Shown one piece after another: positions 5,095 to 22,255 of a stretch of DNA of 22,255 nt. Numbering within the stretch: position 1 is the first letter of the stretch; each line of letters begins with the position of its first letter. This DNA comes from a virus (taxonomy: Duplodnaviria; Heunggongvirae; Uroviricota; Caudoviricetes). The stretch lies in the IMG/VR virus record IMGVR_UViG_2648501165_000011. One strand, 5' to 3'. Made by a program: the position numbers and the translations under genes. The notes under the pieces are model-generated. The model saw only the letters and a program-made list of their open reading frames with translations, made no database searches and was not told the DNA's origin.

Positions 5095-5414
5095 TCGTCC
5101 TTCTCCTTCCCCCTGCGATTAAAGGCCGCAATAACCTTGTCGCGTGCTTTCTCTGCGCCCATAAAACCGATTGATGCGCCGATAAACGTCACGGCATCTT
5201 CAGGAAACCCGAAGAAGCGCAACGACCCGGCCACGGCCATGGCAAGAACGCCGCACGCCAGCGATCCCGTTACGGTCTGAACCAGTGTTCGTCCGTCATA
5301 AAGACTCATCAGCGCGGAAATGCTGACTGCCGCGCCTACTGCATACACCGTTGGCAGGTGGTCAAAGAGCCACGCAATAACCTGCTCTGTGATCCCTGTT
5401 TGAATGGTGCTCAC
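5091..5414 (-). CDS. Holin (class I, about 3 TM segments)
   Basis: Long ORF 5091..5633 overlaps X and has an implausible Arg/Gly-rich N-terminus. A GTG at 5414 preceded by GGGGGGAG gives a 107-aa product with three hydrophobic segments and a charged C-terminal tail (RRGKEKDE); position between X and endolysin as in P2 (Y). Confidence 0.6.
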   Translation of the reverse strand: MSTIQTGITEQVIAWLFDHLPTVYAVGAAVSISALMSLYDGRTLVQTVTGSLACGVLAMAVAGSLRFFGFPEDAVTFIGASIGFMGAEKARDKVIAAFNRRGKEKDE

Positions 5415-5416
5415 TG

Positions 5417-5617
5417 CTACTCCCCCCACAACTGAATCATTTCTCGTTTCTTCTTCTCCGGCTCCGGCATCTCCACGTCCTGCCCGGCGTCCAGAAATAT
5501 CTGCTGACAGAGTCCGGGGTTGGCATCCAGCACCTTTTCGGTGACGCCCTGCGTCGTGCCGTAGTACCGGAAACAGAGCGAATCCACGGTGTCGCCTTCC
5601 AGTGCCTTCACTTTCAT
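5417..5617 (-). CDS. X: Tail protein X (LysM-like, P2 gpX-like)
   Basis: ORF 5417..5623; from ATG 5617 MKVKALEGDTVDSLCFRYYGTTQGVTEKVLDANPGL...LWGE closely matches the remembered P2 gpX pattern (FALQGDTLDAICVRYYGRTEG...). Confidence 0.85.
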   Translation of the reverse strand: MKVKALEGDTVDSLCFRYYGTTQGVTEKVLDANPGLCQQIFLDAGQDVEMPEPEKKKREMIQLWGE

Positions 5618-9125: not shown

Positions 9126-10877
9126 ATGATTCAGGACGCTTTTGTGCGCCAGCGTGCGCGGCAACTTTACTGGCAGGGTTATCCGCCCGCAGAAATATCA
9201 CGTCTGATGGGAATAAACCCGAACACGATTTATGCGTGGAAAAAACGCGACCAGTGGGATGAAACGCCACCCGTGCAGCGTGTCACGCAGTCCATCGATG
9301 CGCGCCTCATCCAGCTCACTGAAAAACAGAATAAAACAGGTGGTGACTTCAAGGAAATAGACCTGCTGACCCGGCAGCTTAAAAAACTGCATGATGGCCA
9401 GCCGGATGCGACGGCCACAGGAAAGAAAGGCCGGGCGAAAAAGCTTAAAAATCATTTCACGCCGGAACAGATTGCCGCACTGCGGGAAAAAATCATCAGC
9501 AGGCTGGAGTGGCATCAGCGGGGCTGGTTTGACTCCCTGACCCTTTGCAGGGAAGCAGGGATACGTAACAGGATGATCCTGAAATCCCGACAGATTGGGG
9601 CGACCTGGTATTTTGCACAGGAAGCGCTGCTGATGGCGCTGCGTGACGATGTGGCGCAACCTTACCAGCGTAACCAGATTTTTTTGTCTGCGTCGCGTCG
9701 TCAGGCGTTCCAGTTTAAAAGCATTATTCAGAAGGCCGCGGCTGAAGTTGATGTGGAGTTGAAAGGGGGCGATAAAATCATCCTCTCCAACGGCGCAGAG
9801 CTGCATTTTCTCGGCACTTCTGCTGCGTCGGCACAGTCCTATACGGGCAATTTTTATTTTGATGAATTTTTCTGGGTCAGTCGCTTTGCTGAACTGCGCA
9901 AGGTGGCTGGCGCTATGGCAACCCTCAGCGGACTGCGGCGCACCTACTTCTCCACGCCATCCACCGAAACGCACGAGGCATACGCCTACTGGAACGGCGA
10001 CCGCTGGAACGAGAAAAAGGCCACGCATAAACGCCAGCGTTTTTCTGTGGACTGGAAAACGCTGCATAACGGGCTTATCTGCCCTGACCGGACGTGGCGG
10101 CAAATTGTCACGCTGGAAGATGTGGTTAATCACGGCTGGAAACACACCGATATCGACGAAATTCGTGATGAAAACACCGAAGACGAGTTCCTCAATCTCT
10201 ATATGTGTGAGTTTGTCCGCGAAGGGGAATCGGCATTTAACCTGAATATCCTGATTGGCTGCGGTGTTGACGGATACGACGACTGGAAAGACTGGAAACC
10301 TTTTGCTCCCCGCCCGATGGGGAATCGTCCGGTATGGATTGGGTATGACGCAAACGGCAGCAGTGGCAACGGCGACAGCGGCGCTGTGTCCGTGGTGGTT
10401 CCTCCGTCTGTTCCTGGTGGCCGTTTTCGAACGGTGGAGACGCGACGCGTTCAGGGGCTGGAGTTTGAAGAACAGGCCAGAGTCATTGAAGAGTTCACGT
10501 GTCGCTACAACGTGGAACACATCGGCATTGATGTGACGGGCGGGAACGGGGAGGCTGTTTATCAGATAGTGAAACGGTTTTTCCCTGCCGCTATTCCGTA
10601 CACCTTCACGCTGTCATCAAAACGGTCGCTGGTACTGAAAATGCTGCAAATAATGCGTGCCGGGCGGTGGGAATACGATCGCGCCGAACGCGAGCTGGTC
10701 GCGGCCTTTAACGCCGTGCGTAAGGTGAAAACACCGGGCGGCTTTATCACTTACGAAACGGACCGCGCGAGGGGGATCAGCCACGGCGACCTTGCGTGGG
10801 CAACCATGCTTGCTGTCATTAACGAACCAATTGGCGGCGAAGGAGAAAACGAGCGTTTCACGGTTATGGAGTTCTGA
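9126..10877 (+). CDS. P: Terminase large (ATPase) subunit (P2 gpP-like)
   Basis: 583 aa; HTH-like N-terminus (ISRLMGINPNTIYAWKKR), ATPase core (LKSRQIGATWYFAQEAL, FYFDEFFWV) and C-terminal nuclease region. GGGGG RBS before ATG 9126; stop overlaps the Q start. Confidence 0.9.
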   Translation: MIQDAFVRQRARQLYWQGYPPAEISRLMGINPNTIYAWKKRDQWDETPPVQRVTQSIDARLIQLTEKQNKTGGDFKEIDLLTRQLKKLHDGQPDATATGKKGRAKKLKNHFTPEQIAALREKIISRLEWHQRGWFDSLTLCREAGIRNRMILKSRQIGATWYFAQEALLMALRDDVAQPYQRNQIFLSASRRQAFQFKSIIQKAAAEVDVELKGGDKIILSNGAELHFLGTSAASAQSYTGNFYFDEFFWVSRFAELRKVAGAMATLSGLRRTYFSTPSTETHEAYAYWNGDRWNEKKATHKRQRFSVDWKTLHNGLICPDRTWRQIVTLEDVVNHGWKHTDIDEIRDENTEDEFLNLYMCEFVREGESAFNLNILIGCGVDGYDDWKDWKPFAPRPMGNRPVWIGYDANGSSGNGDSGAVSVVVPPSVPGGRFRTVETRRVQGLEFEEQARVIEEFTCRYNVEHIGIDVTGGNGEAVYQIVKRFFPAAIPYTFTLSSKRSLVLKMLQIMRAGRWEYDRAERELVAAFNAVRKVKTPGGFITYETDRARGISHGDLAWATMLAVINEPIGGEGENERFTVMEF

Positions 10878-11923
10878 TGAGCAGAAAAAATAAAAAAGTG
10901 CGCATGAGTTCACGCATTGATCTCGCTGATGCGCTCAGGAAAGAATCATCGCTCAGTGCATTCACATTTGATGGTCCTTATCGCCTGACCGGGCATGACC
11001 TGCTGGACAATATGTACTGTGCTGATAACGGGCGGTGGTATGAAACCCCGGTGGACTGGTACGGTCTGGCAAGAGCTGCCCGGCAAACGTCCTGGCATCA
11101 GTCTGCGCTTTACTTTAAGCGCAATGTATTGCTCGGTTGCTATATTCCACACCCGCTGCTTTCCCGGCAGGATTTCTCGGCGCTGGCGCTGGACTGGTTT
11201 GTGTTCGGTAACGCATTCCTTGAGCTTCGAAGCAATATGCTCGGCGAACCGCTTAAATTACGGCACGCCCTGGCGAAATACATGCGACGCGGAAGCGATC
11301 TTGAATCATGGTGGTATGTGCAGGATGGTAAGGACGCGTTTCAGTTTCGCCCTGGCAAAGTGTGCCACCTGATGAATCCAGATATTAACCAGGAAATCTA
11401 CGGCATGCCGGAATATCTCGGCGCATTACTCTCGGCCAGCCTGTCTCATTCGGCGGACATGTTCAGAAAACTGTATTACGACAACGGATCCCACGCCGGG
11501 TGCATCATCTACATCGGTGCAGCGCAGGTAAACCGCGAAAGCATGGACTCCCTGAAAGAAACGTTACAGGGGGCACGTGGTGGTGGTGCGTTTAAAAACG
11601 TGCTCATTCATGCGCCCAACGGGGGCAAAGAGGGGGTGCAAATTTTGCCGTTCCAGCAGATCACCGCAAAGGATGAATTCATGAATGTTAAGGCGGCATC
11701 CCGTGATGATGTGCTGGCTGCGCACCGCGTTCCGCCGCAACTGATGGGGGCGATGCCGGGTGAAAAAAGTGCGTTTGGTGATGTGGAGAAGGCCGCGCGG
11801 GTTTACGCAATTAACGAGCTGATGCCAGTCATGGAGGCCATGAAGCACATCAATGACTGGCTTGGCGAAGAGGTTATCCGTTTTAACCCTTACGCACTGT
11901 TAGACACCCAGCCCACATCCTGA
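10877..11923 (+). CDS. Q: Portal (capsid vertex) protein (P2 gpQ-like)
   Basis: 348-aa ORF translationally coupled to P (TGATG overlap); content fits the gpQ portal family; last gene before the cos-proximal spacer. Confidence 0.9.
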   Translation: MSRKNKKVRMSSRIDLADALRKESSLSAFTFDGPYRLTGHDLLDNMYCADNGRWYETPVDWYGLARAARQTSWHQSALYFKRNVLLGCYIPHPLLSRQDFSALALDWFVFGNAFLELRSNMLGEPLKLRHALAKYMRRGSDLESWWYVQDGKDAFQFRPGKVCHLMNPDINQEIYGMPEYLGALLSASLSHSADMFRKLYYDNGSHAGCIIYIGAAQVNRESMDSLKETLQGARGGGAFKNVLIHAPNGGKEGVQILPFQQITAKDEFMNVKAASRDDVLAAHRVPPQLMGAMPGEKSAFGDVEKAARVYAINELMPVMEAMKHINDWLGEEVIRFNPYALLDTQPTS

Positions 11924-11973: not shown

Positions 11974-12250
11974 GACTCTCCAGCTCCTGTATCAGTCAGA
12001 TAATTTCACGACGCCTTCCAATTTATCGCCACCATCGACGGTCAGACTCTTACGCAATCCCACCGCGTTGACTGCATGTTCTCGCCGCCTCAGTGCGATT
12101 TTGACGGCCTTACCTTTCACCCCATCAAATCAGAATCCCTCACGTATTTTTCACGCTCAGCGTGAGAAATACGGCCATTCTGTCGTGTCGCTGCGACATT
12201 GTTAAGGGAACGCTATTTACCCCCTGAAACGCGGGCTGTTCCCCCGTCAC
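11974..12250. other. Expected location of cos (packaging) site; exact cohesive-end sequence not identified
   Basis: In P2 the cos site lies just beyond the 3' end of Q. I could not match the remembered P2 cohesive-end sequence, so this is positional inference only. Confidence 0.25.
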
Positions 12251-12277
12251 CTGCGCGCAGAAAAAGCGCGTTTTTTT
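12251..12277 (+). terminator. Intrinsic-terminator-like element: short GC stem (CGCGC-agaaaaa-GCGCG) followed by T7
   Basis: Read directly from the sequence; would stop plus-strand read-through from P-Q. The stem is short (5 bp), so confidence is moderate. Confidence 0.45.
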
Positions 12278-12348
12278 GTGCATGCACGGATCCTTGACGG
12301 ATCCAGCCGCCACGGGGGCCGGAAGGGCAAAAAGTCGTTCAAAAAAAT

Positions 12349-12375
12349 TGTGCAAATTTGTGCACTATTGTGCAG
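12349..12375. repeat. Three direct repeats of TTGTGCA at exact 10-bp phasing
   Basis: attgtgcaaa / tttgtgcact / attgtgcagc at 12349, 12359 and 12369; helical-turn phasing suggests a protein-binding array. Confidence 0.5.
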
Positions 12376-12401
12376 CAGGGCGATGCGCGATTATCGCCCT
12401 G
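12376..12401. repeat. Palindrome CAGGGCGAT-N8-ATCGCCCTG just downstream of the Ea22-like gene stop
   Basis: Perfect 9-bp arms; shares its core (CAGGGCG/CGCCCTG) with the palindrome at 12977..12994 on the other side of the gene. Confidence 0.5.
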
Positions 12402-12414
12402 GTTTGAGAGGAAA

Positions 12415-12939
12415 TCAGGTGTTCTTTTTACCTTCTGTCAGTGGGCATAACCATCCACTATTTACATCACTTAGCTGATGCGTTCTTTCCTCGTGCTTCT
12501 CCTGCCACAATGCTTTTCCGCCAGCCTTTATGATGGCTCTTTCAACATCCCGCTCGTATCGCAAGGGCTGAAATACGTTATTAATGAAATATTCGCTTAT
12601 GTCCGGAAGCAATACTGCAAAATTATTGGTTTGTTGCGCCGTTCGGCTATGCAGCAAAGCGGCATACTTTAATGCGTCCTGTGCTTTCTGGAATTTCAGT
12701 GCATGCTCAGTGGCGATTTTTTCCAGTTCAGCGATCCTGTTGTCTTTGGTTTCCAGCTCTTCCAGCAGCTCGGCGATAATGTCCATTTCCTGATGACGGA
12801 TTTGACGCTTAAACGCCGCCACTGCTTCGCTACAATCCTGCTCAGCATTTGGGTTATCCGTGGTGGCCTCATACCACGCCAGCGTCGATTGATAGTTTTG
12901 TGCCGCCTCACGTAATGCCTGATAGTTGATTTCGCTCAT
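12415..12939 (-). CDS. Ead/Ea22-like family protein (unknown function), accessory cargo gene
   Basis: 174-aa ORF with AAGGAGA RBS 7 nt before ATG 12939. N-terminus MSEINYQALREAAQ... and coiled-coil segment ELLEELETKDNRIAELEKIA resemble the Ead/Ea22-like proteins of E. coli prophages as I remember them; C-terminal half has no recognisable motif. Confidence 0.5.
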   Translation of the reverse strand: MSEINYQALREAAQNYQSTLAWYEATTDNPNAEQDCSEAVAAFKRQIRHQEMDIIAELLEELETKDNRIAELEKIATEHALKFQKAQDALKYAALLHSRTAQQTNNFAVLLPDISEYFINNVFQPLRYERDVERAIIKAGGKALWQEKHEERTHQLSDVNSGWLCPLTEGKKNT

Positions 12940-12976
12940 TATGTCGTTCTCCTTGTTTATGTTCTGAGGTGGAGAG

Positions 12977-12994
12977 CAGGGCGAACCCGCCCTG
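12977..12994. repeat. Perfect hairpin CAGGGCG-aacc-CGCCCTG between parR stop and the Ea22-like start
   Basis: 7-bp perfect stem read from sequence; no T-tract on either side. Confidence 0.5.
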
Positions 12995-13002
12995 ACGTTG
13001 TG

Positions 13003-13314
13003 TTATTCAGGAAATAACGCCCGGATATTTCCGGCCATCTGACTGGTTATCTGTGCGGTTGGTGCTGGCTGTGACACGGGGCGTTCTGTCCTGGTTTGTG
13101 TCAGGGATAACGCTTCATCGTCAGCCCATGCAGCCAGTCGGTAAGCCTCTGCCGGATTAATTTTCATAAGTGCCAGTCCGGCCAGAAAAGCCACACGTTG
13201 ACCACTTTTGCGGGCTTCTGGTGTAAGGCTGTCCAGCCAGGCGCATGCTTCGCCTTCGTTCTTGACGGCGGCGGGCTTCAGATAGAAACTTATCCGTCTG
13301 GTTGGTGTCGTCAT
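13003..13314 (-). CDS. parR: ParR/StbB-like centromere-binding adaptor (ribbon-helix-helix), type II partition
   Basis: ORF 13003..13449; from ATG 13314 the product MTTPTRRISFYLKPAAVKNEGEACAWLDSLTPEARKSGQRVAFLAGLALMK...NIRALFPE parallels plasmid R1 ParR as remembered (RRTIAFKLNPDVNQ...LDSIPQGERSRLNRAALTAGLALYR...ILRSLFPKE). Immediately downstream of parM. Confidence 0.7.
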   Translation of the reverse strand: MTTPTRRISFYLKPAAVKNEGEACAWLDSLTPEARKSGQRVAFLAGLALMKINPAEAYRLAAWADDEALSLTQTRTERPVSQPAPTAQITSQMAGNIRALFPE

Positions 13315-13318
13315 TGGT

Positions 13319-14278
13319 TTACTCCTTGTCCATTGCGTACAGCCCATTAACCAGAGCAAACTGTGGCACCCCGTCCGCGATGAAAGTCGCATTAACTCCG
13401 CAGGCTTCGCGGATAGCGGGTGCCACAATCTCCGCCCCGCCACCGACAACCATCACCCGCCCGTAACCCGAAAAACCCGCCAGCGCGCGGATCACGCGTT
13501 GTTTCAGTGTTTCTTCCTTTTCACGAATAACCGCCATCAGGCTGTCGTAATGCGCGTCATTGTGGATGTGCTGGCGCAGCCAGGCTTCATTATGGCGATG
13601 TTCGATAATGGTATTGGCGATGTGGTGACTGGTACGCATACCGTTAGTGGCCATCACCGACAGTACGGCATCGGCCATCAGGGAAACGCCTACGTGTGGA
13701 TCGCAAAACACCTGGCTGATACCTGCCAGTTGTCCCTGAACCTTTGCCACATCCAGCGTGGTTCCGCCTAAATCCACAATCAGCAGGGATTCAAACGGAC
13801 TCATGTCAGCCAGTGCTTTAAAACCAGCCGGAATGGATTCAGGCATAACCCGTACGTTACGGATAGTGAATGCTTTTCCGTTCTGGTACGCCACCGGGCG
13901 CATGACGTTTGCTTTTTTGCGGTTGATGTTGGCCATGTCCGGCTGTGCGTTTGTGTCGAAATATTCGCTCAGTGGCAGGGTGACAACCACATCCACTTCC
14001 TGTGGTGTGATGCCTGATTTGACCAGCGCGTGATGAATGGCAATGACATTCACATCGCTGTACTGGTATTGCGTGTCGGTCGTCTGGACAAAGCGATCGC
14101 TGACCGGATCAAAACCATAGCGCACGCCATCAAGCATGTAGTTCGCGGGCTGCGTGCCACCGAACGGCGCAGACCATTCCGACTTGAAGCTGTTCGGGCT
14201 GATGGCGTTGCGGCGTTCGCCGTTCTCAGTCCATGCCAGCTTGATGTTGGTGGAGCCGTCATCGATACAAATTTTCAT
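13319..14278 (-). CDS. parM: ParM/StbA-like actin-type segregation ATPase
   Basis: 319 aa; MKICIDDGSTNIKLAW, ISPNSFK, YQYSDVNVIAIHHAL, VMPESIPAG, LIVDLGGTTLD, SGYGRVMVVGGGAE, LVNGLY track plasmid R1 ParM almost motif for motif (actin-fold phosphate-1, connect and adenosine motifs). AAGGAAAA RBS before ATG 14278. Confidence 0.85.
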   Translation of the reverse strand: MKICIDDGSTNIKLAWTENGERRNAISPNSFKSEWSAPFGGTQPANYMLDGVRYGFDPVSDRFVQTTDTQYQYSDVNVIAIHHALVKSGITPQEVDVVVTLPLSEYFDTNAQPDMANINRKKANVMRPVAYQNGKAFTIRNVRVMPESIPAGFKALADMSPFESLLIVDLGGTTLDVAKVQGQLAGISQVFCDPHVGVSLMADAVLSVMATNGMRTSHHIANTIIEHRHNEAWLRQHIHNDAHYDSLMAVIREKEETLKQRVIRALAGFSGYGRVMVVGGGAEIVAPAIREACGVNATFIADGVPQFALVNGLYAMDKE

Positions 14279-14304
14279 GTCGCTTTTCCTTATGTTGATT
14301 AATT

Positions 14305-14420
14305 AATCGTTTACGGGATTCTGAAATCCCGTTTTTGCCTGTTTTATGCGCGCTTCATATATCGCGGCGCGTTTTTTGCTCATTTACGGGATTTGTGAAT
14401 CCCGTTTCTGTCTGTTTTTT
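14305..14420. promoter_or_regulatory. parC-like centromere/operator: two 20-bp palindromes ACGGGATT-N4-AATCCCGT 73 bp apart (centre to centre), each followed by a conserved TTT(T/C)TG(C/T)CTGTTTT tail, flanking an AT-rich promoter-like core
   Basis: Sites at 14313..14332 and 14386..14405 read directly; position immediately upstream of parM matches the parC-parM-parR organisation of type II partition loci. Confidence 0.55.
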
Positions 14421-14794
14421 GTTTCCACTGGTCAGGCCACCCCGCAGCAGGTCTGCTTTGCGGCGGGCGCGTTCAGTGGTTTCACTGATTCTCTGTGCGT
14501 GCTCTGCGTCGCGGATGGCGCGCAGCATGTCAGAAAGCACGGTAACGGGTGTTTTCATGGTGTTCTGGTCTTGCTGAAGTGTGGATGCCAGGCGTGCGGC
14601 GGCTTCGGGGTCTGATGCCCCCAGCTGTTCCAGATAGCTGGCGACCGGGTTATGGCGGATCTCCGTGCTGCTTACGCCGTGGTTACGGCTCAGGCGCTGC
14701 CAGAGCTGCGTGATTCGGCTGTCCGGGCGGGTATCCGGTTTGCGTACAATTTCAAATCCCTGCGGTGCAATGATGCTGCCGTCAACGTACAGGC
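14355..14794 (-). CDS. ORF of unknown function whose 5' end lies in the assembly gap (could be a separate gene or the frame-shifted C-terminus of gpA)
   Basis: Open frame reads from the N-run to a stop at 14355. Translated segment (...EIVRKPDTRPDSRITQLWQRLSRNHGVSSTEIRHNPVASYLEQLGASDPEAAARLA...) is protein-like, but its C-terminal 20 codons run through the parC palindrome, so its true extent is uncertain. Confidence 0.3.
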
Positions 14795-14828
14795 NNNNNN
14801 NNNNNNNNNNNNNNNNNNNNNNNNNNNN
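14795..14828. other. Run of 34 N (assembly or scaffold gap of unknown true length)
   Basis: Directly visible in the sequence. Confidence 0.99.
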
Positions 14829-17139
14829 ATTCTTTAGCGAGTAATTCGTGGTTATCAGGCAAAGGCCGCTGCTGTTTGCGGCTCTGTGTCCAGCTCTGCA
14901 TTTCATCACTGCTGTTTTTTGCCTGTTTGTCACGAAGCGAACGCATCAGCGCCCGGCGTTCGTGCCGTTTCAGTGAGCGCATCCATTCGTTCACTTCAAC
15001 GCCGTCAGGGAGCTGCGGCCACGGTGCTGGCCGTTCTTCCGGCTGTTCTGTCCCGTTGTTGTCCGTTTCCTGTACACGGGGACAGTTATTGCCACGAGTC
15101 CAAGGGGCGGCAGGGCCGCCCTGAAGGTCAAAACCATTTTCGCGGGCGCTGTCTTCCGTTTCCGGTTTACGTCTTACCAGTTTCCAGTTATCCGGATGCG
15201 TGCACACACGGGAGGATTCCCCGATGAGTGGTGACCAGATCCCGTAAATCTGTACGCTCTGTTCGCCGTAATCATTCAGCTCATCTGCGAGGTCGTAGGC
15301 GGTGCGAATCAGGTAGTCTTTGCGTGGAACAAGTACGCCGCCCTGTTTTTCAATGTAGGTGGCAAAACACCCGGCATCGGCGGCAGCGAGTACCGCATCC
15401 ATTGCGTCATCTTTCAGTCGTTGCGGGCCTTCCGGGTTGCGTGCCATCTGGCTGGCAAGGCGGCGCAGTTCACGCCACACCTGACGGGAGGGGATGCCAA
15501 AGAACTGGAACTGGCGGACCCGATGAAGGCGCGCCCAGCCGATGGCGCGCTCCACACTCTCGACCATTGATTTTCCGGTTTCGTGGTCAACGCGTGGCTT
15601 GCCCGTTTTCGGGTCGATGCCATCCACGGCGCGGCTGTCCAGGTTCTTTCCGATGTAGGTCGCGATATAGCTGGTTGGTGTGCCTTTTGAGCCGTCGACA
15701 TACTCCGCCTTAAAGCGCGGAGTAATATCATTGCCCAGCTCGTGGCGGTCTTCCTGAATGGCAATATCGCGGGTGATGGCCACGATGCTGTCGATTTCTT
15801 CCGGATGAGCAAAGACCATCATATGCCAGTGCACGGTGCCGTCATGGTGAGGCTCCACCGTGCGGATGCCATACCAGCGAAGACCGTCGCGGTTCAGTTT
15901 TTTGCGGACCGCCGCAAAAAACGTGTTAACCAGGTAATCACTGGAGTCGCGCATGGTGGACCCGTTCCATTTGGGGTTCGGATGACCGTTCTCTGTTGTG
16001 GCGTGGTATTTTGACGGGCAGGTGACAGTCAGAAACACCGCTTTGTCGCCACGGGCTTCGGCCAGAAGTTCCAGCCCCTTCATGGTGGCCATCATTTCTG
16101 CCTTACGGTGAACCGGGTTACTTACTCCCGCGTAATACACCGTCTCGAGATCAAACGTGAACCCGTCTTCATTTTCCAGCATGAAACTTTTCAGGAAATC
16201 GCGTGTTTTCTCGCGCTGTGCGCGAAACTCGCTTAACGCGTCCTGGCTCAGATAGGGCGATGTTTTTCTGGAAACCAGACAGGCGGCGCGGAGTTGTTCT
16301 TCTCTCCACTCGCAACGTAACAGCCACAGTTTGCGTTTCCACCATTCTGCACAGGTCAGGCGAAGGATTGCGCCCGGCAGCAGCTCCGTGTCCGGTTCGT
16401 TCCTCCGGTCTTTGTCTGTTGTCAGTGCGTCATAATGTGGAGGCATGGCGTGCAGGTGTAACGCCATGCGGGCCAGCATCTGATACGCCTTCAGCGTTAC
16501 ATCCATGGTCAGTTCGCCATCGGTCGCGCCAAAGCCATCGCAGAGTTTTTCGAAGGTGCTGCTGAACATCGCCGCCGTCATGGTGGCCAGTGTCTGTATC
16601 TGGTGTTTGTTGAGCTGCGGCAGGTAAAGCAAATCGTCCAAGCGTTCGCGTCCGGCAAGGGAGCGATAACCCTGTGTCAGCCAGCGGTGATCGGTGCGCT
16701 CCAGACGTTCGAATATTTTGCGCAGGTTTCCGCGCGCGTAGCGTTCAGCCTGCCAGCTCTTTTTGCCTTTCTGACGATCGGCTTCCTGTTTTTTGCGCAG
16801 GAAGGAGAGGTGGCGAATAAGCGGATCGCGCAGATAGGACGGCAGCAGGCGCAGCGAGGCCATGGCTTCATCCACCGCGCCGCGTGCCTGTTTTCTGGCA
16901 TCTCCTGCCAGTGTGATGGTTTTGTCCTGTTTTTCCTGTGCGTCCAGGCTTTTATTAATCAGGTTGCCCAGCGGCGTTGCGGAGAACGCCGCATCAGCCA
17001 TTTCCTGGCGGTGCTCGTTCTCTACCCGGTAGGCATCCAGCCAGGAGGAAAGCGCGGATTCAGGAGCGGGGATCCCCGTTCCTTCACGCCCCACTGCGTG
17101 GCGCGGTTGTTGCCAGTCCCTGATGTACTCTGCCGTCAT
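14829..17139 (-). CDS. A: Replication initiation endonuclease (P2 gpA-like, HUH rolling-circle nickase); 3' end interrupted by the N-gap
   Basis: About 770 aa before the gap; HUH-type motif EPHHDGTVHWHMMVF and Tyr-rich active-site region GTPTSYIATYIGKN, typical of P2 gpA-family proteins; ATG 17139. Confidence 0.85.
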
Positions 17140-20432: not shown

Positions 20433-20720
20433 CTAAAGTCCCAGCCACAACAACCATGCGTCGCGGCGTTCTTTCGGTTGCTCAAAAAACGCTTTGCGCA
20501 TGCCTTCGTTAAATGCTGGCAGATATACCCAGTTTTCTGATGCACGCGTCTTTACTGAACCTGGTTTCACAAAGTCAATTGTCGGTAGCTTTGCTGCGTC
20601 AATCATGGTTCTGACTGTGGATTCCTTGCGGCCGATCATCTTGGCGAATAGTTGATATGGCACCGCTTCAAGTGGATATGGTGCTACCTGAATGAACCCC
20701 CCAAGCTCTGATTCGCTCAT
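20433..20720 (-). CDS. cox: Cox-like excisionase / early-lytic repressor
   Basis: 95 aa; AVPYQLFAKMIGRKESTVRTMIDAAKLPTIDF...NWVYLPAFNEGMRKAF...RRDAWLLWLGL parallels the remembered P2 Cox (IPYQEFAKLIGKSTGAVRRMIDKGKLPVID...YWVYLPAWNNG...IRDGWLMWLGL). Divergent from C; GGGAGA RBS. Confidence 0.85.
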   Translation of the reverse strand: MSESELGGFIQVAPYPLEAVPYQLFAKMIGRKESTVRTMIDAAKLPTIDFVKPGSVKTRASENWVYLPAFNEGMRKAFFEQPKERRDAWLLWLGL

Positions 20721-20833
20721 TGTGGTAATCTCCCTAATTCGTTCGAATGGCTCAAAATGGCTTATATCGGCTTATTTGAGTGTTTTTATGTTTGTGCCCG
20801 ATGTGGCATGTTGCGATGGAGGATATGCCCGAT
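20721..20833. promoter_or_regulatory. cox/C developmental switch region (early-lytic and repressor promoters and operators)
   Basis: 113-bp spacer between divergent cox and C; contains three GGCT(C/T)A direct repeats at 10-bp phasing (20750, 20760, 20770) and a 15-nt direct repeat TGCCCGAT(G/A)TGGCAT at 20795..20809 and 20826..20840, the second overlapping the C start codon. Confidence 0.6.
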
Positions 20834-21154
20834 ATGGCATCTTTGTCAAGCATGGGTGAAAAATTTCGCCTGATTCGTGAAGCAGAAGGTATGACCCGCC
20901 AGGAGTTTGCGGATTGTGTTGGGCTGCCTTATGGGACGGTAACTAACTATGAGGTGAGGGGGAAGCAAGTAACAGAGGGTGCCTTACTTAAGGTTACGAA
21001 ACACCCTAAATTTAAGAAGTATGCTTATTGGTTATCAACAGATGAAACGATGCCGGAGGTCGGGCAAATTTCTCCGGCTCTCTCTCTTGATGGTTCCTGC
21101 AATTCGGAGGGAGATCGCGTTTCAACCGAAACAATCCAAAAATTATCCCGCTGA
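20834..21154 (+). CDS. C: Immunity repressor (P2 C-like, HTH)
   Basis: ORF 20780..21154; likely start ATG 20834, 10 nt after GGAGGA. EKFRLIREAEGMTRQEFADCVGLPYGTVTNYE...KFKKYAYWLSTDETMPEVGQISPAL parallels the remembered P2 C (EKIVLMRKSEYLSRQQLADLTGVPYGTLSYYE...QFTKYTLWFMTNQIAPESGQIAPAL). Confidence 0.8.
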   Translation: MASLSSMGEKFRLIREAEGMTRQEFADCVGLPYGTVTNYEVRGKQVTEGALLKVTKHPKFKKYAYWLSTDETMPEVGQISPALSLDGSCNSEGDRVSTETIQKLSR

Positions 21155-21250
21155 GGCCAGAAAACTGGTTAGACCTGCTTTTTGTCTGGTCTGATTATTG
21201 CTGGAAAGAGGCTGGAGAAATTGTAGAGCGGTTCATTGGAGGGCTTCGTA

Positions 21251-22255
21251 ATGTCGATTAAGAAGCTCGAAGATGGTCGTTATTTGCTGGACATCAGGCC
21301 GAACGGACGCAAGGGAAAGCGCGTGCGTAAGGTATTTGACAAAAAATCGGTAGCGGTGGCCACTGAACGCTACATCATGGCGAACGCTGAAAAGCGGGAA
21401 TATATACAGGGCTACCGTGATCGTCGAACGCTAAATGATTTGCTTGAGTTGTGGTGGATGTATCACGGCCAGCACAGGCGTAAGGCGGAAGAAGACCGAA
21501 AACAACTGCGCAACATAATCAATGAGCTTGGCGCTGATATGCAGGCTGTGGATCTTGATAAGCTGAAAATTATCGCGTGGCGTTCTCAAAAGATAGCTGA
21601 AGGATTGAAACCGTCATCTGCTAACAGGTACATGAATCGGTTATCCGGAATGTTTTCCGTGCTGAAAAAAATAGGTCTTTGGGATGCAGAACATCCAGTA
21701 AGGGGAATTTCTATTCTTTATGTATCTCCACGAGAAATGGCGTTCCTGTCACAGAAGGAAGTGGCGCTATTGCTCGATACACTGGAGGGCGACTACTGGC
21801 GTGTTGCGCTTTTGTGTTTAAGCACAGGGGCGCGCTGGAGTGAAGCTTGTAAGCTTCGTGGTGAACAGATAGTTCATAACCGTGTAACGTTTCTTGAAAC
21901 CAAAAATGGCCGGAAGAGAACAGTGCCAATTTCGCAGGCAGTTTGTGAGGCGATCAAAACCAGAGAAACAGGCGGCTTGTTTGAGGTGAAGTACCGGGAA
22001 TTCTGCCTGGCGCTGAAAAGAGTTAAGCCCGATTTACCAAAAGGCCAGGCTGCACATGTGCTGCGGCATACGTTCGCCAGCCATTTTGTGATGAACGGAG
22101 GAAACATTATTGCGCTTCAGAAGATTCTTGGTCACGCAACCATTCAGCAAACAATGGCATATGCGCATTTTGCACCGGATTACCTGCAGGATGCGGTGGC
22201 CCTTAATCCGCTGAAAGGTGGCGTAAGTGTCCACGCAGTGTCCACGGGGGATTAA
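21251..22255 (+). CDS. int: Tyrosine integrase (P2 Int-like)
   Basis: ORF 21236..22255; ATG 21251 lies 8 nt after GGAGGG (MSIKKLEDGRYLLDIRPNGRKGKR...). Catalytic-domain motifs LSTGARWSEA, HVLRHTFASHF, LGHATIQQTMAYAHFAPDYLQDA include the conserved Arg, His-x-x-Arg and Tyr; stop is the last codon of the window. Confidence 0.9.
   Translation: MSIKKLEDGRYLLDIRPNGRKGKRVRKVFDKKSVAVATERYIMANAEKREYIQGYRDRRTLNDLLELWWMYHGQHRRKAEEDRKQLRNIINELGADMQAVDLDKLKIIAWRSQKIAEGLKPSSANRYMNRLSGMFSVLKKIGLWDAEHPVRGISILYVSPREMAFLSQKEVALLLDTLEGDYWRVALLCLSTGARWSEACKLRGEQIVHNRVTFLETKNGRKRTVPISQAVCEAIKTRETGGLFEVKYREFCLALKRVKPDLPKGQAAHVLRHTFASHFVMNGGNIIALQKILGHATIQQTMAYAHFAPDYLQDAVALNPLKGGVSVHAVSTGD

Follow-up and report, generated by a model that had tools for sequence, protein, structure and literature searches.

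Plasmid-type parM and parR genes and a two-palindrome parC-like region beside replication gene A in P88-like, P2-type prophages

Directly after replication gene A of a P2-type prophage, in a stretch of viral DNA of 22,255 nucleotides that was analysed as a whole (hereafter the window), lie intact genes for an actin-like segregation ATPase (ParM) and its adaptor (ParR), and two 20-bp palindromes are placed upstream of them across the stop codon of A. The best explanation, which we hold at about even odds (a probability of roughly 0.5), is that together they make up a functional ParMRC module, expressed as part of the early replication operon, whose target is phage DNA in its transient circular form.

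As a sequence feature the cassette is already known, with annotations in phage P88 and in over 1300 complete E. coli genomes. The module was noted and an episomal state was proposed earlier (Rousset 2022, PMC9122126; Pfeifer 2021, PMC7969092), and a literature search for functional work on P88 ParM/StbA gave passing mentions only. The puzzle is why a P2-type phage that integrates and replicates by rolling circle should retain, under strong purifying selection in several genera, an actin segregation system of plasmid type. Candidate answers are positioning of the replicating circles, as by AlpAC of the prophage CGP3, rescue, when the cell divides, of genomes that have not integrated, and a conditional plasmid state. 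The answer would inform how temperate phages handle their DNA from entry or excision to integration or packaging, and would also supply a very compact natural ParR-binding centromere to study.

Prophage type and gene content of the window

The element that hosts the cassette is assigned to the P88-like branch (Xuanwuvirus, Peduoviridae) of the P2-type prophages on the basis of 95–97.5% DNA identity to 14 phage records, whose Q-cos-parR-parM-A order and annotations it matches. The neighbouring genes agree with a preliminary description of this DNA and comprise terminase P, portal Q, a GPA-family A, Cox, an HTH repressor and an integrase (Table 1), and the cassette-bearing element does encode integrase, repressor and Cox, as that description had said. 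The variable slot between parR and cos/Q is occupied by an ead/Ea22-like gene with a GC content of 0.47, against 0.54 in parM. The hairpin found 3' of this gene is possibly the end of an A-parM-parR-ead transcription unit.

Table 1. Positions of the cassette, its candidate sites and the context genes in the window (strand "." where a feature is not assigned to one strand).
Feature	Position	Strand	Description
Terminase P	9126–10877		
Portal Q	10877–11923		
Terminator-like hairpin and T-run	12350..12365	-	3' of the ead-like gene; consensus match only
ead/Ea22-like gene	12415..12939	-	Pfam Ead_Ea22, 55.5 bits; outside the partition module
parR	13003..13314	-	103-aa adaptor, PF10784/StbB
parM	13319..14278	-	319-aa actin-like segregation ATPase, R1 ParM/StbA family
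parC-like region	14307..14421	.	Two 42-nt direct repeats; straddles the gene A stop codon
Palindrome 2, candidate ParR site	14313..14332	.	ACGGGATTCTGAAATCCCGT on the + strand; A-parM spacer
Gene A, 3' end	14355..14794	-	C-terminal 145 aa; phrog_6857 positions 711–855
Palindrome 1, candidate ParR site	14386..14405	.	ACGGGATTTGTGAATCCCGT on the + strand; last codons of gene A
N run	14795..14828	.	34 N replacing about 72 nt; splits gene A artificially
Gene A, main body	14829..17139	-	GPA-family rolling-circle initiator; Pfam Phage_GPA, 435 bits
Cox	20433–20720		
HTH repressor	20780–21154		
Integrase	21236–22255		

ParM and ParR

Profile searches agreed with the preliminary reading of the larger protein as ParM, both ParM domains being covered at full length: Pfam StbA_N (PF06406) scored 273.5 bits over positions 1–157 of 158 (cut-off 24.6) and the ParM C-terminal domain (PF21523) 228.7 bits over positions 1–159 of 159. 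The R1 ParM structure (PDB 1mwk) was matched by residues 2–316 with E=1e-91, and identity to R100 ParM is 46% over 318 aa. All ATPase motifs are in place, comprising phosphate 1 (DDGSTxIK), the catalytic Glu in PESIPAG, phosphate 2 (DLGGTTLD) and the adenosine motif (GGGA). Among homologues of 49–100% identity the residues D6, D7, G8, S9, T10, K13, P146, E147, S148, D169–D176 and G279–A282 are invariant, and they align with the same residues of R1 ParM.

Purifying selection on parM is strong (dN/dS = 0.064), and the gene is intact over its 319 codons in 89 of 91 related loci. Together with the conservation of every catalytic motif and the retention of the cassette across genera in which ParM identity has fallen to 53–62%, these values make it highly improbable that the cassette is a functionless, selectively neutral remnant of an old fusion between a plasmid and a phage, an explanation that would sit well with its being integrated nearly everywhere and with there being no phenotype reports.

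The smaller protein, which had likewise been named ParR beforehand, matched Pfam PF10784 (Plasmid_stab_B) at 88.9 bits (cut-off 25) and, along its whole length, phrog_2515, 'partition protein'. Its gene starts 5 nt past the parM stop, with a GGAG ribosome-binding site ahead. Residues 5–60 of R100 ParR are 34% identical to the N-terminus of the window protein, and the ParR family profile reaches pB171 ParR (2JD3) with E=0.005; a single-sequence search of the PDB returned chance antibody matches only. The AlphaFold2 monomer model had a pLDDT of 48.7, too low for fold confirmation. Judged by its sequence, the N-terminus (about residues 1–60) is a predicted DNA-binding region of ribbon-helix-helix type. 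Variants with 42–84% identity conserve the N-terminal ~60 aa and a C-terminal NIxALFPE, while the linker (about residues 65–92) is hypervariable among them. The N-x-x-x-L-(F/I) spacing in NIxALFPE is the same as that in the C-terminus of R100 ParR, KNAMKLIN.

Gene A and the parC-like region

The raw open reading frame places the end of gene A at 14782, which is wrong. In unmasked relatives A is one 940-aa open reading frame with a stop that, by alignment across the masked run, is equivalent to 14355, the true end, and RefSeq gives a single 940-aa A coding sequence in one relative (L001). Since A ends at 14355, palindrome 1 falls in its last codons and palindrome 2 is alone in the spacer between A and parM, which measures 76 bp. 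The C-terminal 145 aa of A were found only in the 14 P88-like phage records.

Both palindromes are exact, with 8-bp arms (ACGGGATT-N4-AATCCCGT), and lie where the preliminary description had put them; the parM ATG is 35–54 nt downstream of palindrome 2. The direct repeats at 14307–14348 and 14380–14421 are 73 bp apart from start to start, and each consists of an A-rich flank and a palindrome. No further match to the palindrome pattern was found in the 22-kb window with 3 mismatches allowed; 0.10 chance matches are expected, and none of 100 shuffles yielded two. The claim of a centromere-like region upstream of parM holds for its repeated palindromes and fails for its purely intergenic position, as one of the sites is inside gene A.

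Upstream regions of related loci were taken from tblastn coordinates and aligned with MAFFT. The core of palindrome 2, GGGATT-N4-AATCC(C/T), is conserved in 88 related loci and in a Hafnia variant. Palindrome 1 is perfect in 41 of the 88 loci and carries a T to C change in one arm in another 38. In the Hafnia (L010) and Plesiomonas (L016) phages the inner bases differ, and the two-site layout across the A stop is kept with a spacing of 72–73 bp, the equivalent of palindrome 1 overlapping the 3' end of A.

Rather than a centromere, the palindromes might form hairpins in RNA or DNA, such as a tandem pair of intrinsic terminators that keep + strand antisense transcription coming from the side of the cargo and cos out of A, in which case ParR would bind elsewhere or just autoregulate. 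On the + strand both are followed by T-rich tracts and both were called terminator-like by the scan, the predicted energies being -10.2 to -11.0 kcal/mol (z-scores -2.6 to -5.1); single-base changes in relatives retain G-U pairing on one or other strand, and two sites are few for a type II centromere. This explanation is weakened by the invariant core and by the finding of 0 double compensatory changes in 58 distinct sequences, as would be expected of a protein site. The spacing retained in Hafnia and Plesiomonas corresponds to seven helical turns, parC of R1/R100 is also directly upstream of parM, two more + strand terminator-like hairpins already lie between Q and the palindromes, and there is no + strand gene nearby. 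We regard the hairpin explanation as rather unlikely, and candidate ParR sites as the better description of the two palindromes.

Transcription

A crude consensus scan of both strands between 12300 and 14700 gave no sigma-70-like promoter, and the terminator scan gave no sense-strand terminator between A and parM. Because parM and parR are on the same strand as A, with no recognisable promoter or terminator between, we infer that they are read as part of the early replication operon. A promoter that is weak or under ParR control might nevertheless be present over palindrome 2 and would then permit expression in lysogens. A search with an approximate form of the P2 ori nick sequence gave no match, which counts neither for nor against its presence.

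Distribution, synteny and composition

At a nucleotide identity of at least 90% the cassette is present in 1307 of 5426 complete E. coli genomes, with up to 3 copies per genome, and 14 of 14 P88-like (Xuanwuvirus) phage records carry it. The earlier statement that type II segregation systems are not standard in integrating P2-like phages is thus wrong for the P88-like lineage. RefSeq labels the two products ParM and 'plasmid partitioning/stability family protein'. An exact 8-mer pattern scan of genome contigs gave three near-identical parM loci.

The order A-parM-parR-variable-Q is common to prophages of Escherichia, Hafnia, Plesiomonas, Serratia and Enterobacter, and parM-parR comes directly after A even in lineages with ParM 53–62% identical. 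In the 67 loci compared, the slot between parR and Q measures 989–4173 nt. The GC and GC3 of the window parM (0.545 and 0.631) equal those of phage core genes, against 0.390 and 0.355 in R100 parM. The cassette had been presented beforehand as cargo of a variable slot; its fixed position after A and core-like GC and GC3 speak against this, and the length variation begins only after parR. Going by these comparisons, parMR has long belonged to the conserved genes of the P88-like branch and of several other P2-like lineages.

A recent plasmid origin was considered and rejected, the nearest plasmid parM having about 66% DNA identity and the GC3 being far from that of R100 parM. No related plasmid ParR was found in the collection beyond 7 prophage-derived records. 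Phage 500465-2 was set aside as a comparator free of parMR, this record being a truncated prophage prediction with host genes.

A reading of the module as a defence system was also rejected, as neither ParM nor ParR had a match among 5027 PADLOC models and the module is invariant beside A. The sole PADLOC match was that of the neighbouring ead-like protein, which was weak (E=0.002). The same results bear on a function in the lysogen, whereby the ParMR of the prophage would hamper related phages or plasmids or act on a chromosomal locus bearing parC. ParR of type II systems is an autorepressor, and such autorepression makes low steady expression conceivable; the coexistence of several cassette copies in one genome is in keeping with a lysogen function, as is the position of the cassette next to the gpA-gpQ hotspot, in which old, tin and many defence systems are found (PMC9122126). 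Against it, the PADLOC models give no support to the exclusion role suggested in the preliminary description, the module is conserved and linked to A, unlike variable defence cargo, and a promoter was not detected. The collection holds no plasmid target with the same centromere, given that plasmid parM reaches about 66% DNA identity at best and related ParR is prophage-derived only. A function of this kind is in our view improbable.

Integrated or extrachromosomal state

In the 5426 complete E. coli genomes, 1453 of the 1455 places where the cassette occurs are chromosomal. Of the 31 related loci that extend far enough, 30 have an integrase, and the attP junction was found split in each of the 442 genomes with the matching integrase type. 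Near-identical cassettes were found in 7 of 72,556 plasmid records, most of which are 0.2–1.4 Mb in size and resemble chromosome pieces or co-integrates. The 34,461-bp circular 'plasmid' record NZ_CP148288.1 consists of nothing but a complete P88-like phage closed at att, which is explained equally well by spontaneous excision in the sequenced culture.

These counts bear on the idea that P88-like phages are facultative phage-plasmids, in which the cassette would secure stable inheritance of the complete prophage as a low-copy plasmid, in place of integration, in certain hosts or under certain conditions. P88 has been listed as a putative phage-plasmid that might exist in both episomal and integrated form (Pfeifer et al. 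2021, PMC7969092), with the P2-like Burkholderia phage KS14 in the same community (PMC7969092). A complete ParMR with a repeat element is the equipment of a low-copy plasmid, the P1-like phage-plasmid D6 runs on StbA/StbB with a ParM that is 47.5% identical, and the circular whole-phage record just described would fit as well. The chromosomal location of nearly every copy, the rarity of plasmid records, the near-constant integrase and the split attP all point the other way, and gene A, a rolling-circle initiator, belongs to a replicon of lytic type. Neither a theta replicon of the plasmid kind nor a region for copy control was found. A phage-plasmid is recognised by an extrachromosomal prophage and by plasmid-type replication with the integrase dispensable or absent, and the cassette-bearing element shows neither. 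The facultative plasmid state is unlikely on this evidence, and stable episomal maintenance, one of the roles offered in the preliminary description, is disfavoured by the 1453 chromosomal places.

Proposed function

In the preferred reading, that of a working ParMRC module acting on transient phage circles, ParR dimers would use their N-terminal ribbon-helix-helix region to bind the palindrome pair that spans the A stop codon, and the conserved C-terminal helix of ParR would catch ATP-ParM filaments at their ends. As filaments lengthened between two copies bound by ParR, the sister phage circles would be pushed apart. The module would act on the free circle after infection and before integration, and again after excision, during the A-driven rolling-circle output of monomeric circles, so that phage circles would be spread through the cell and into both daughters.

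Several points count against the preferred reading. The need for partition is not obvious for rolling-circle, P2-type replication in a cell committed to lysis; with two palindromes the centromere would be far smaller than R1 parC with its ten iterons; the palindrome inside the gene is imperfect in about half of the relatives; and the circular whole-phage record leaves some probability to a longer-lived episome. The more general proposition, that ParMRC is an early-operon part of a broad set of P2-type phages and uses a minimal two-palindrome centromere, built over the end of the replication gene, to separate rolling-circle monomers, is advanced only tentatively.

If this more general proposition is true, then in about a quarter of E. 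coli strains the phage would need an actin-like cytoskeleton for efficient lysogenisation, for a transient pseudolysogenic carrier state or for productive replication, and such phages would be a natural bridge from integrating phages to phage-plasmids.

Comparison with known systems

The closest functional analogue of the preferred reading is the AlpC/AlpA pair of CGP3, an integrated prophage of Corynebacterium glutamicum. AlpC is of a distant actin-like family, and CGP3 differs in its Gram-positive actinobacterial host and in being of an unrelated phage type. The pair consists of an actin-like ATPase and an adaptor that binds upstream of its own operon (PMC4446434); it is induced early on excision, and the phage circle needs it in order to replicate efficiently (Donovan et al. 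2015, PMC4446434).

The likeness to ParMRC of R1/R100 (NR1) lies in the parC-parM-parR order and in the ParM ATPase motifs. The parC of R1/R100 consists of ten 11-bp direct iterons flanking a promoter, whereas the window has two 20-bp palindromes and no detectable promoter. ParR is 103 aa long in the window and 116 aa in R100, and the window protein is without the internal ILRSLFPKE segment and the tail arrangement of R1. The host replicons differ too, the one being an integrating rolling-circle phage and the other a low-copy theta plasmid.

Apart from the P88-like phages, D6 alone among the phage records of the collection has a ParM from the same family (the 47.5% identity given above), and a StbB-type adaptor is encoded next to it; its annotators remarked on the likeness of its StbA to the StbA of P88. 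It is a 91-kb plasmid prophage that has StbA/StbB in place of the ParAB of P1 for plasmid inheritance, and its upstream repeats are unlike the palindromes of the window.

Cargo of the P2 gpA-gpQ hotspot includes old, tin, retrons and others, and roughly one in four P2-like phages of E. coli has been counted as carrying a putative partition system (Rousset et al. 2022, PMC9122126). The cassette shares the A-Q interval with this cargo but differs from it in being fixed beside A, in its core-like composition and in having no defence-model matches.

The nearest relatives are the P88-like phages themselves: P88, P884B11, 520873, 503458, PhiR44_2 and Citrobacter phage Shae_phiSM have the same arrangement of A (940 aa), parM, parR, slot and cos/Q. 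The DNA identity of P88-like phages to the window, 95–97.5%, applies across 12000–14950, and their ParM proteins are 94.7–98.7% identical to that of the window. Their records already carry the labels 'plasmid segregation protein ParM' and 'partition protein', and they differ from the window only in the cargo after parR, which in the window is ead/Ea22-like, and in the allele of the parR linker.

Identification of ParM and ParR

The two minus-strand genes and the repeated upstream palindromic element that the preliminary description had placed at 13003-14420 were confirmed by the exactness of the palindromes, their unique pattern and profile matches, and its naming of the proteins as ParM and ParR stands on Pfam and PHROG matches for both. 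ParM was matched to the StbA_N (273.5 bits) and ParM C-terminal domain (PF21523, 228.7 bits) profiles, each covered whole, to PHROG 691 'partition protein' and to the solved structures of R1 ParM (E=1e-91), and its identity to R100 ParM amounts to 46% across 318 residues. The phosphate-1, catalytic, phosphate-2 and adenosine motifs were invariant in an alignment of homologues with 49-100% identity. An intact 319-codon parM was present in 89 of 91 related loci with a dN/dS of 0.064 (mean pairwise, 73 alleles), which rules out a decaying relic. GC and GC3 of parM (0.545/0.631) are the same as in the phage core genes; the values for R100 parM are 0.390/0.355.

Features of the partition module and its surroundings in the window
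Feature	Position	Strand	Description
parM	13319-14278	minus	319 aa
parR	13003-13314	minus	103 aa
Palindromes, two exact copies	14313-14332 and 14386-14405		ACGGGATT-N4-AATCCCGT; upstream of parM
ead/Ea22-like coiled-coil gene	12415-12939	minus	Pfam 55.5 bits; GC 0.47
Terminator-like hairpin	12350-12365		after the ead-like gene; consensus scan

The parR gene starts 5 nt past the parM stop, with GGAG ahead of it. ParR scored 88.9 bits against Pfam PF10784 Plasmid_stab_B (cut-off 25), matched PHROG 2515 end to end and showed 34% identity to the N-terminus of R100 ParR over 56 residues. The best PDB match of a profile built from its relatives was the solved pB171 ParR (2JD3, E=0.005); the AlphaFold2 monomer model (pLDDT 48.7) was too poor for use. 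ParR variants are conserved at both ends, in the ~60 N-terminal residues (an RRISFYLKP strand followed by two helices) and in the eight C-terminal ones (NIxALFPE), and are hypervariable at residues 65-92. This C-terminal motif is also carried by the longer ParRs of the Plesiomonas, Serratia and Enterobacter phages, and its N-x-x-x-L-(F/I) spacing is identical at the C-terminus of R100 ParR. In R1, the C-terminal ParR peptide is the ParM binder, as Gayathri and colleagues are said to have found in 2012. The likeness is a lead that would hint at ParM binding by the P88-like ParR. By all sequence criteria that could be tested, the module is a member of the R1 ParM/StbA family, and it is apparently functional and of genuine ParMRC type.

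Gene A and the placement of the module

A mask of 34 N lies at 14795-14828, where the unmasked close relative NZ_CP068035 has ~72 nt between the same flanks, so the mask is not length-preserving. Its effect is that the replication gene A seems to end at 14782 and that a spurious separate ORF appears at 14355-14933. The ORF past the mask (14355-14792, minus strand) was matched to the last 145 positions both of PHROG 6857 and of phrog_91 'nicking at origin of replication', and the replication endonuclease of NZ_CP068035 is a single 940-aa CDS with an end equivalent to 14355. This CDS and the PHROG matches past the mask therefore set the end of gene A at 14355, and the upstream palindrome (site 1) thus lies within its last codons; only the downstream palindrome (site 2) sits in the 76-bp spacer between A and parM. 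The C-terminal 145 aa of gene A (14355-14792) matched no Pfam or NCBIfam family and was confined, within the phage collection, to the 14 parMR-carrying records. A proteins are shorter (785-789 aa) in P2-like phages with a more distant parMR, and the extension is therefore specific to the P88-like group.

Using megablast, the segment 12000-14950 was 95-97.5% identical to Escherichia phage P88, Xuanwuvirus P884B11, the phages 520873, 503458 and PhiR44_2, Citrobacter phage Shae_phiSM and others, in all of which the genes are already annotated as ParM and partition protein. Xuanwuvirus is a genus in Peduoviridae (P2-type phages), and the other window genes are P2-type as expected (terminase P, portal Q, gene A, Cox, HTH repressor, integrase). 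The segment from parR to the spacer (13003-14354) was found at ≥90% nucleotide identity in 1307 of 5426 complete E. coli genomes, EDL933 and NU14 among them, at 1455 places. Within the phage collection, this ParM family was represented by the 14 P88-like records and, outside them, only by the P1-like phage-plasmid D6 (47.5% identity). The presence of the module had already been noted by Rousset et al. 2022 (PMC9122126) and Pfeifer et al. 2021, and the phiSM gene was listed as a 'fitness' factor by Magaziner et al. 2019 (PMC6456863). The rarity earlier ascribed to the cassette is thus not borne out: it belongs to the standard make-up of P88-like phages, is known, annotated and discussed in earlier work, and is no surprise insertion. 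No functional study of a P88-type ParMR module was found in the literature.

Loci with ParR variants of 40-85% identity, and those with ParM of 62% (Plesiomonas), 58% (Serratia) and 53% (Enterobacter), were traced to contigs and all showed the order A, parM, parR, variable genes, sometimes ogr, and portal gene; a 48% ParM homologue in Dickeya belongs to a conjugative element instead. Across 80 IMG/VR loci, parR and Q were separated by 989 to 4173 nt, and in the window this space holds the ead-like gene, with lower GC. The A-linked order shared across lineages, the variable parR-Q distance and the core-like GC mark the cassette as an old, conserved, A-linked module. The DNA match of many E. coli copies to the window begins only at nucleotide 258 of the 13003-14354 query, inside parR, ~18 codons from its start, and only those first ~18 codons of parR are shared at the DNA level; the mosaic boundary of the hotspot therefore runs through the parR linker. 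The cassette had been described as cargo of the Q-to-A variable region, but it is fixed beside A, and the variable hotspot begins after it, more precisely inside parR.

Several minor observations were made on related loci. Over window positions 13003-13260, the ParR alleles of loci L004-L008 differ mainly in the hypervariable linker, with ParM ~98% identical. In L006 and L007 a 42-aa ORF directly after parR (5309-5437) holds the internal ParM fragment VEVDVVITLPLSEYFDT, corresponding to ParM residues ~95-110; this ORF seems to be the remnant of an additional parM copy and hints that elements bearing parMR have recombined in the past. L008 (GCA_008711365.1, 1137-5520) is a degraded copy: gene A is split into several ORFs, ParR (P0082, the variant with 40% identity) is frameshifted mid-gene, and fragments of IS transposases lie directly 3' of parR; its parM is still a 319-aa ORF. 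A 226-kb contig labelled Vagococcus sp. (NZ_JBQPOM010000071.1) carries a parM whose product shares 97% identity with the E. coli prophage ParM, most likely an enterobacterial contamination of this Gram-positive assembly. With PADLOC, the ead-like protein weakly matched a model for an Aga Cas4-like nuclease (E=0.002), probably coiled-coil noise.

The palindromic element

Both palindromes sit in 42-nt direct repeats spaced 73 bp apart, and even when 3 mismatches were allowed their pattern had no further occurrence in the window (0.10 expected). The core GGGA(T/C)T...AATCC(C/T) was kept among 88 P88-like loci, whose upstream regions comprise 58 distinct sequences; site 2 was perfect in 45 and site 1 in 41, a further 38 having a single T-to-C change in site 1, and no double compensatory changes were seen in this set. 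A Hafnia variant with different flanks has both GGGATT-N4-AATCCC cores 73 bp apart, the first overlapping the end of gene A. In the Plesiomonas phage, whose ParM is 62% identical and whose A has 789 aa, GCGGGACAACA-N-AACCC occurs twice, 72 bp apart, once within the 3' end of A and once in the spacer. The Serratia and Enterobacter phages, with longer and more divergent ParRs, have other inverted repeats in this region. Several of these results speak for a functional element: an arrangement and spacing (seven helical turns) that stay constant as the inner bases change would be the pattern of a protein-binding element co-evolving with its binder.

Alternatively, the palindromes may be hairpins rather than ParR sites, as each is followed by a T-rich tract on the plus strand and scored as terminator-like, its predicted stability being about -10 to -11 kcal/mol; however, there is no plus-strand gene here to terminate, the same strand has two other terminator-like hairpins farther upstream, and the U-tract is missing on the sense strand. 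Binding of ParR to the palindromes is judged likely. Whereas parC of R1/R100 consists of ten direct iterons around a promoter, the P88-like element has two palindromes, and it is unusual as a centromere-like element in being minimal, palindromic and partly within a gene. A third copy of the half-site flank TTTACGGGATC, with one mismatch, was found at 15238-15248 (minus strand, inside gene A), ~0.85 kb from the palindromes, with a similar match in NZ_CP068035; it could be chance (3 matches in 1/100 shuffles).

Transcription

A crude consensus scan of 12300-14700 gave no sigma-70-like promoter on either strand (1.7 expected) and no sense-strand terminator between A and parM; terminator-like sites were over-represented (13 against 3.6 expected). 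Plus-strand terminator-like hairpins were located at 12977-12994 and 12398-12419, between Q/cos and parR. The simplest reading of the scan would be a single transcription unit running from the early promoter through A, parM and parR to the ead-like gene, in which case ParMR synthesis would accompany that of the replication proteins and be absent from the repressed lysogen.

Possible function and state of the element

The integrated prophage CGP3 offers the closest functional precedent in its AlpC/AlpA pair: AlpC is actin-like, and the adaptor AlpA binds upstream of its own operon; both are induced early after excision and required for efficient phage replication (PMC4446434). In the mechanistic reading that we favour most, with a probability of roughly one half, the P88-like module would act on transient free circular phage DNA and be co-expressed with gene A. 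The main rival is conditional plasmid maintenance of the phage by ParMR; P88 was flagged in the phage-plasmid screen of Pfeifer et al. 2021 (PMC7969092), where episomal and integrative states were suggested. The cassette was chromosomal at 1453 of the 1455 places in complete E. coli genomes, 30 of the 31 loci of sufficient extent had an integrase, and the attP junction, taken from the sole circular record, was split at the att core in all genomes with that integrase type (442/442). Near-identical cassettes were found in 7 of 72,556 plasmid records, most of these 0.2-1.4 Mb. Stable plasmid carriage is therefore at most rare. The circular record NZ_CP148288.1 (34,461 bp), deposited as plasmid pZ1323PEC0009-2, contains a whole P88-like phage closed at att and encodes integrase, Cox, A, parMR, structural proteins, a Hok/Gef toxin and a Com/methyltransferase pair; it may represent either a true episome or an excised form that the assembly captured.
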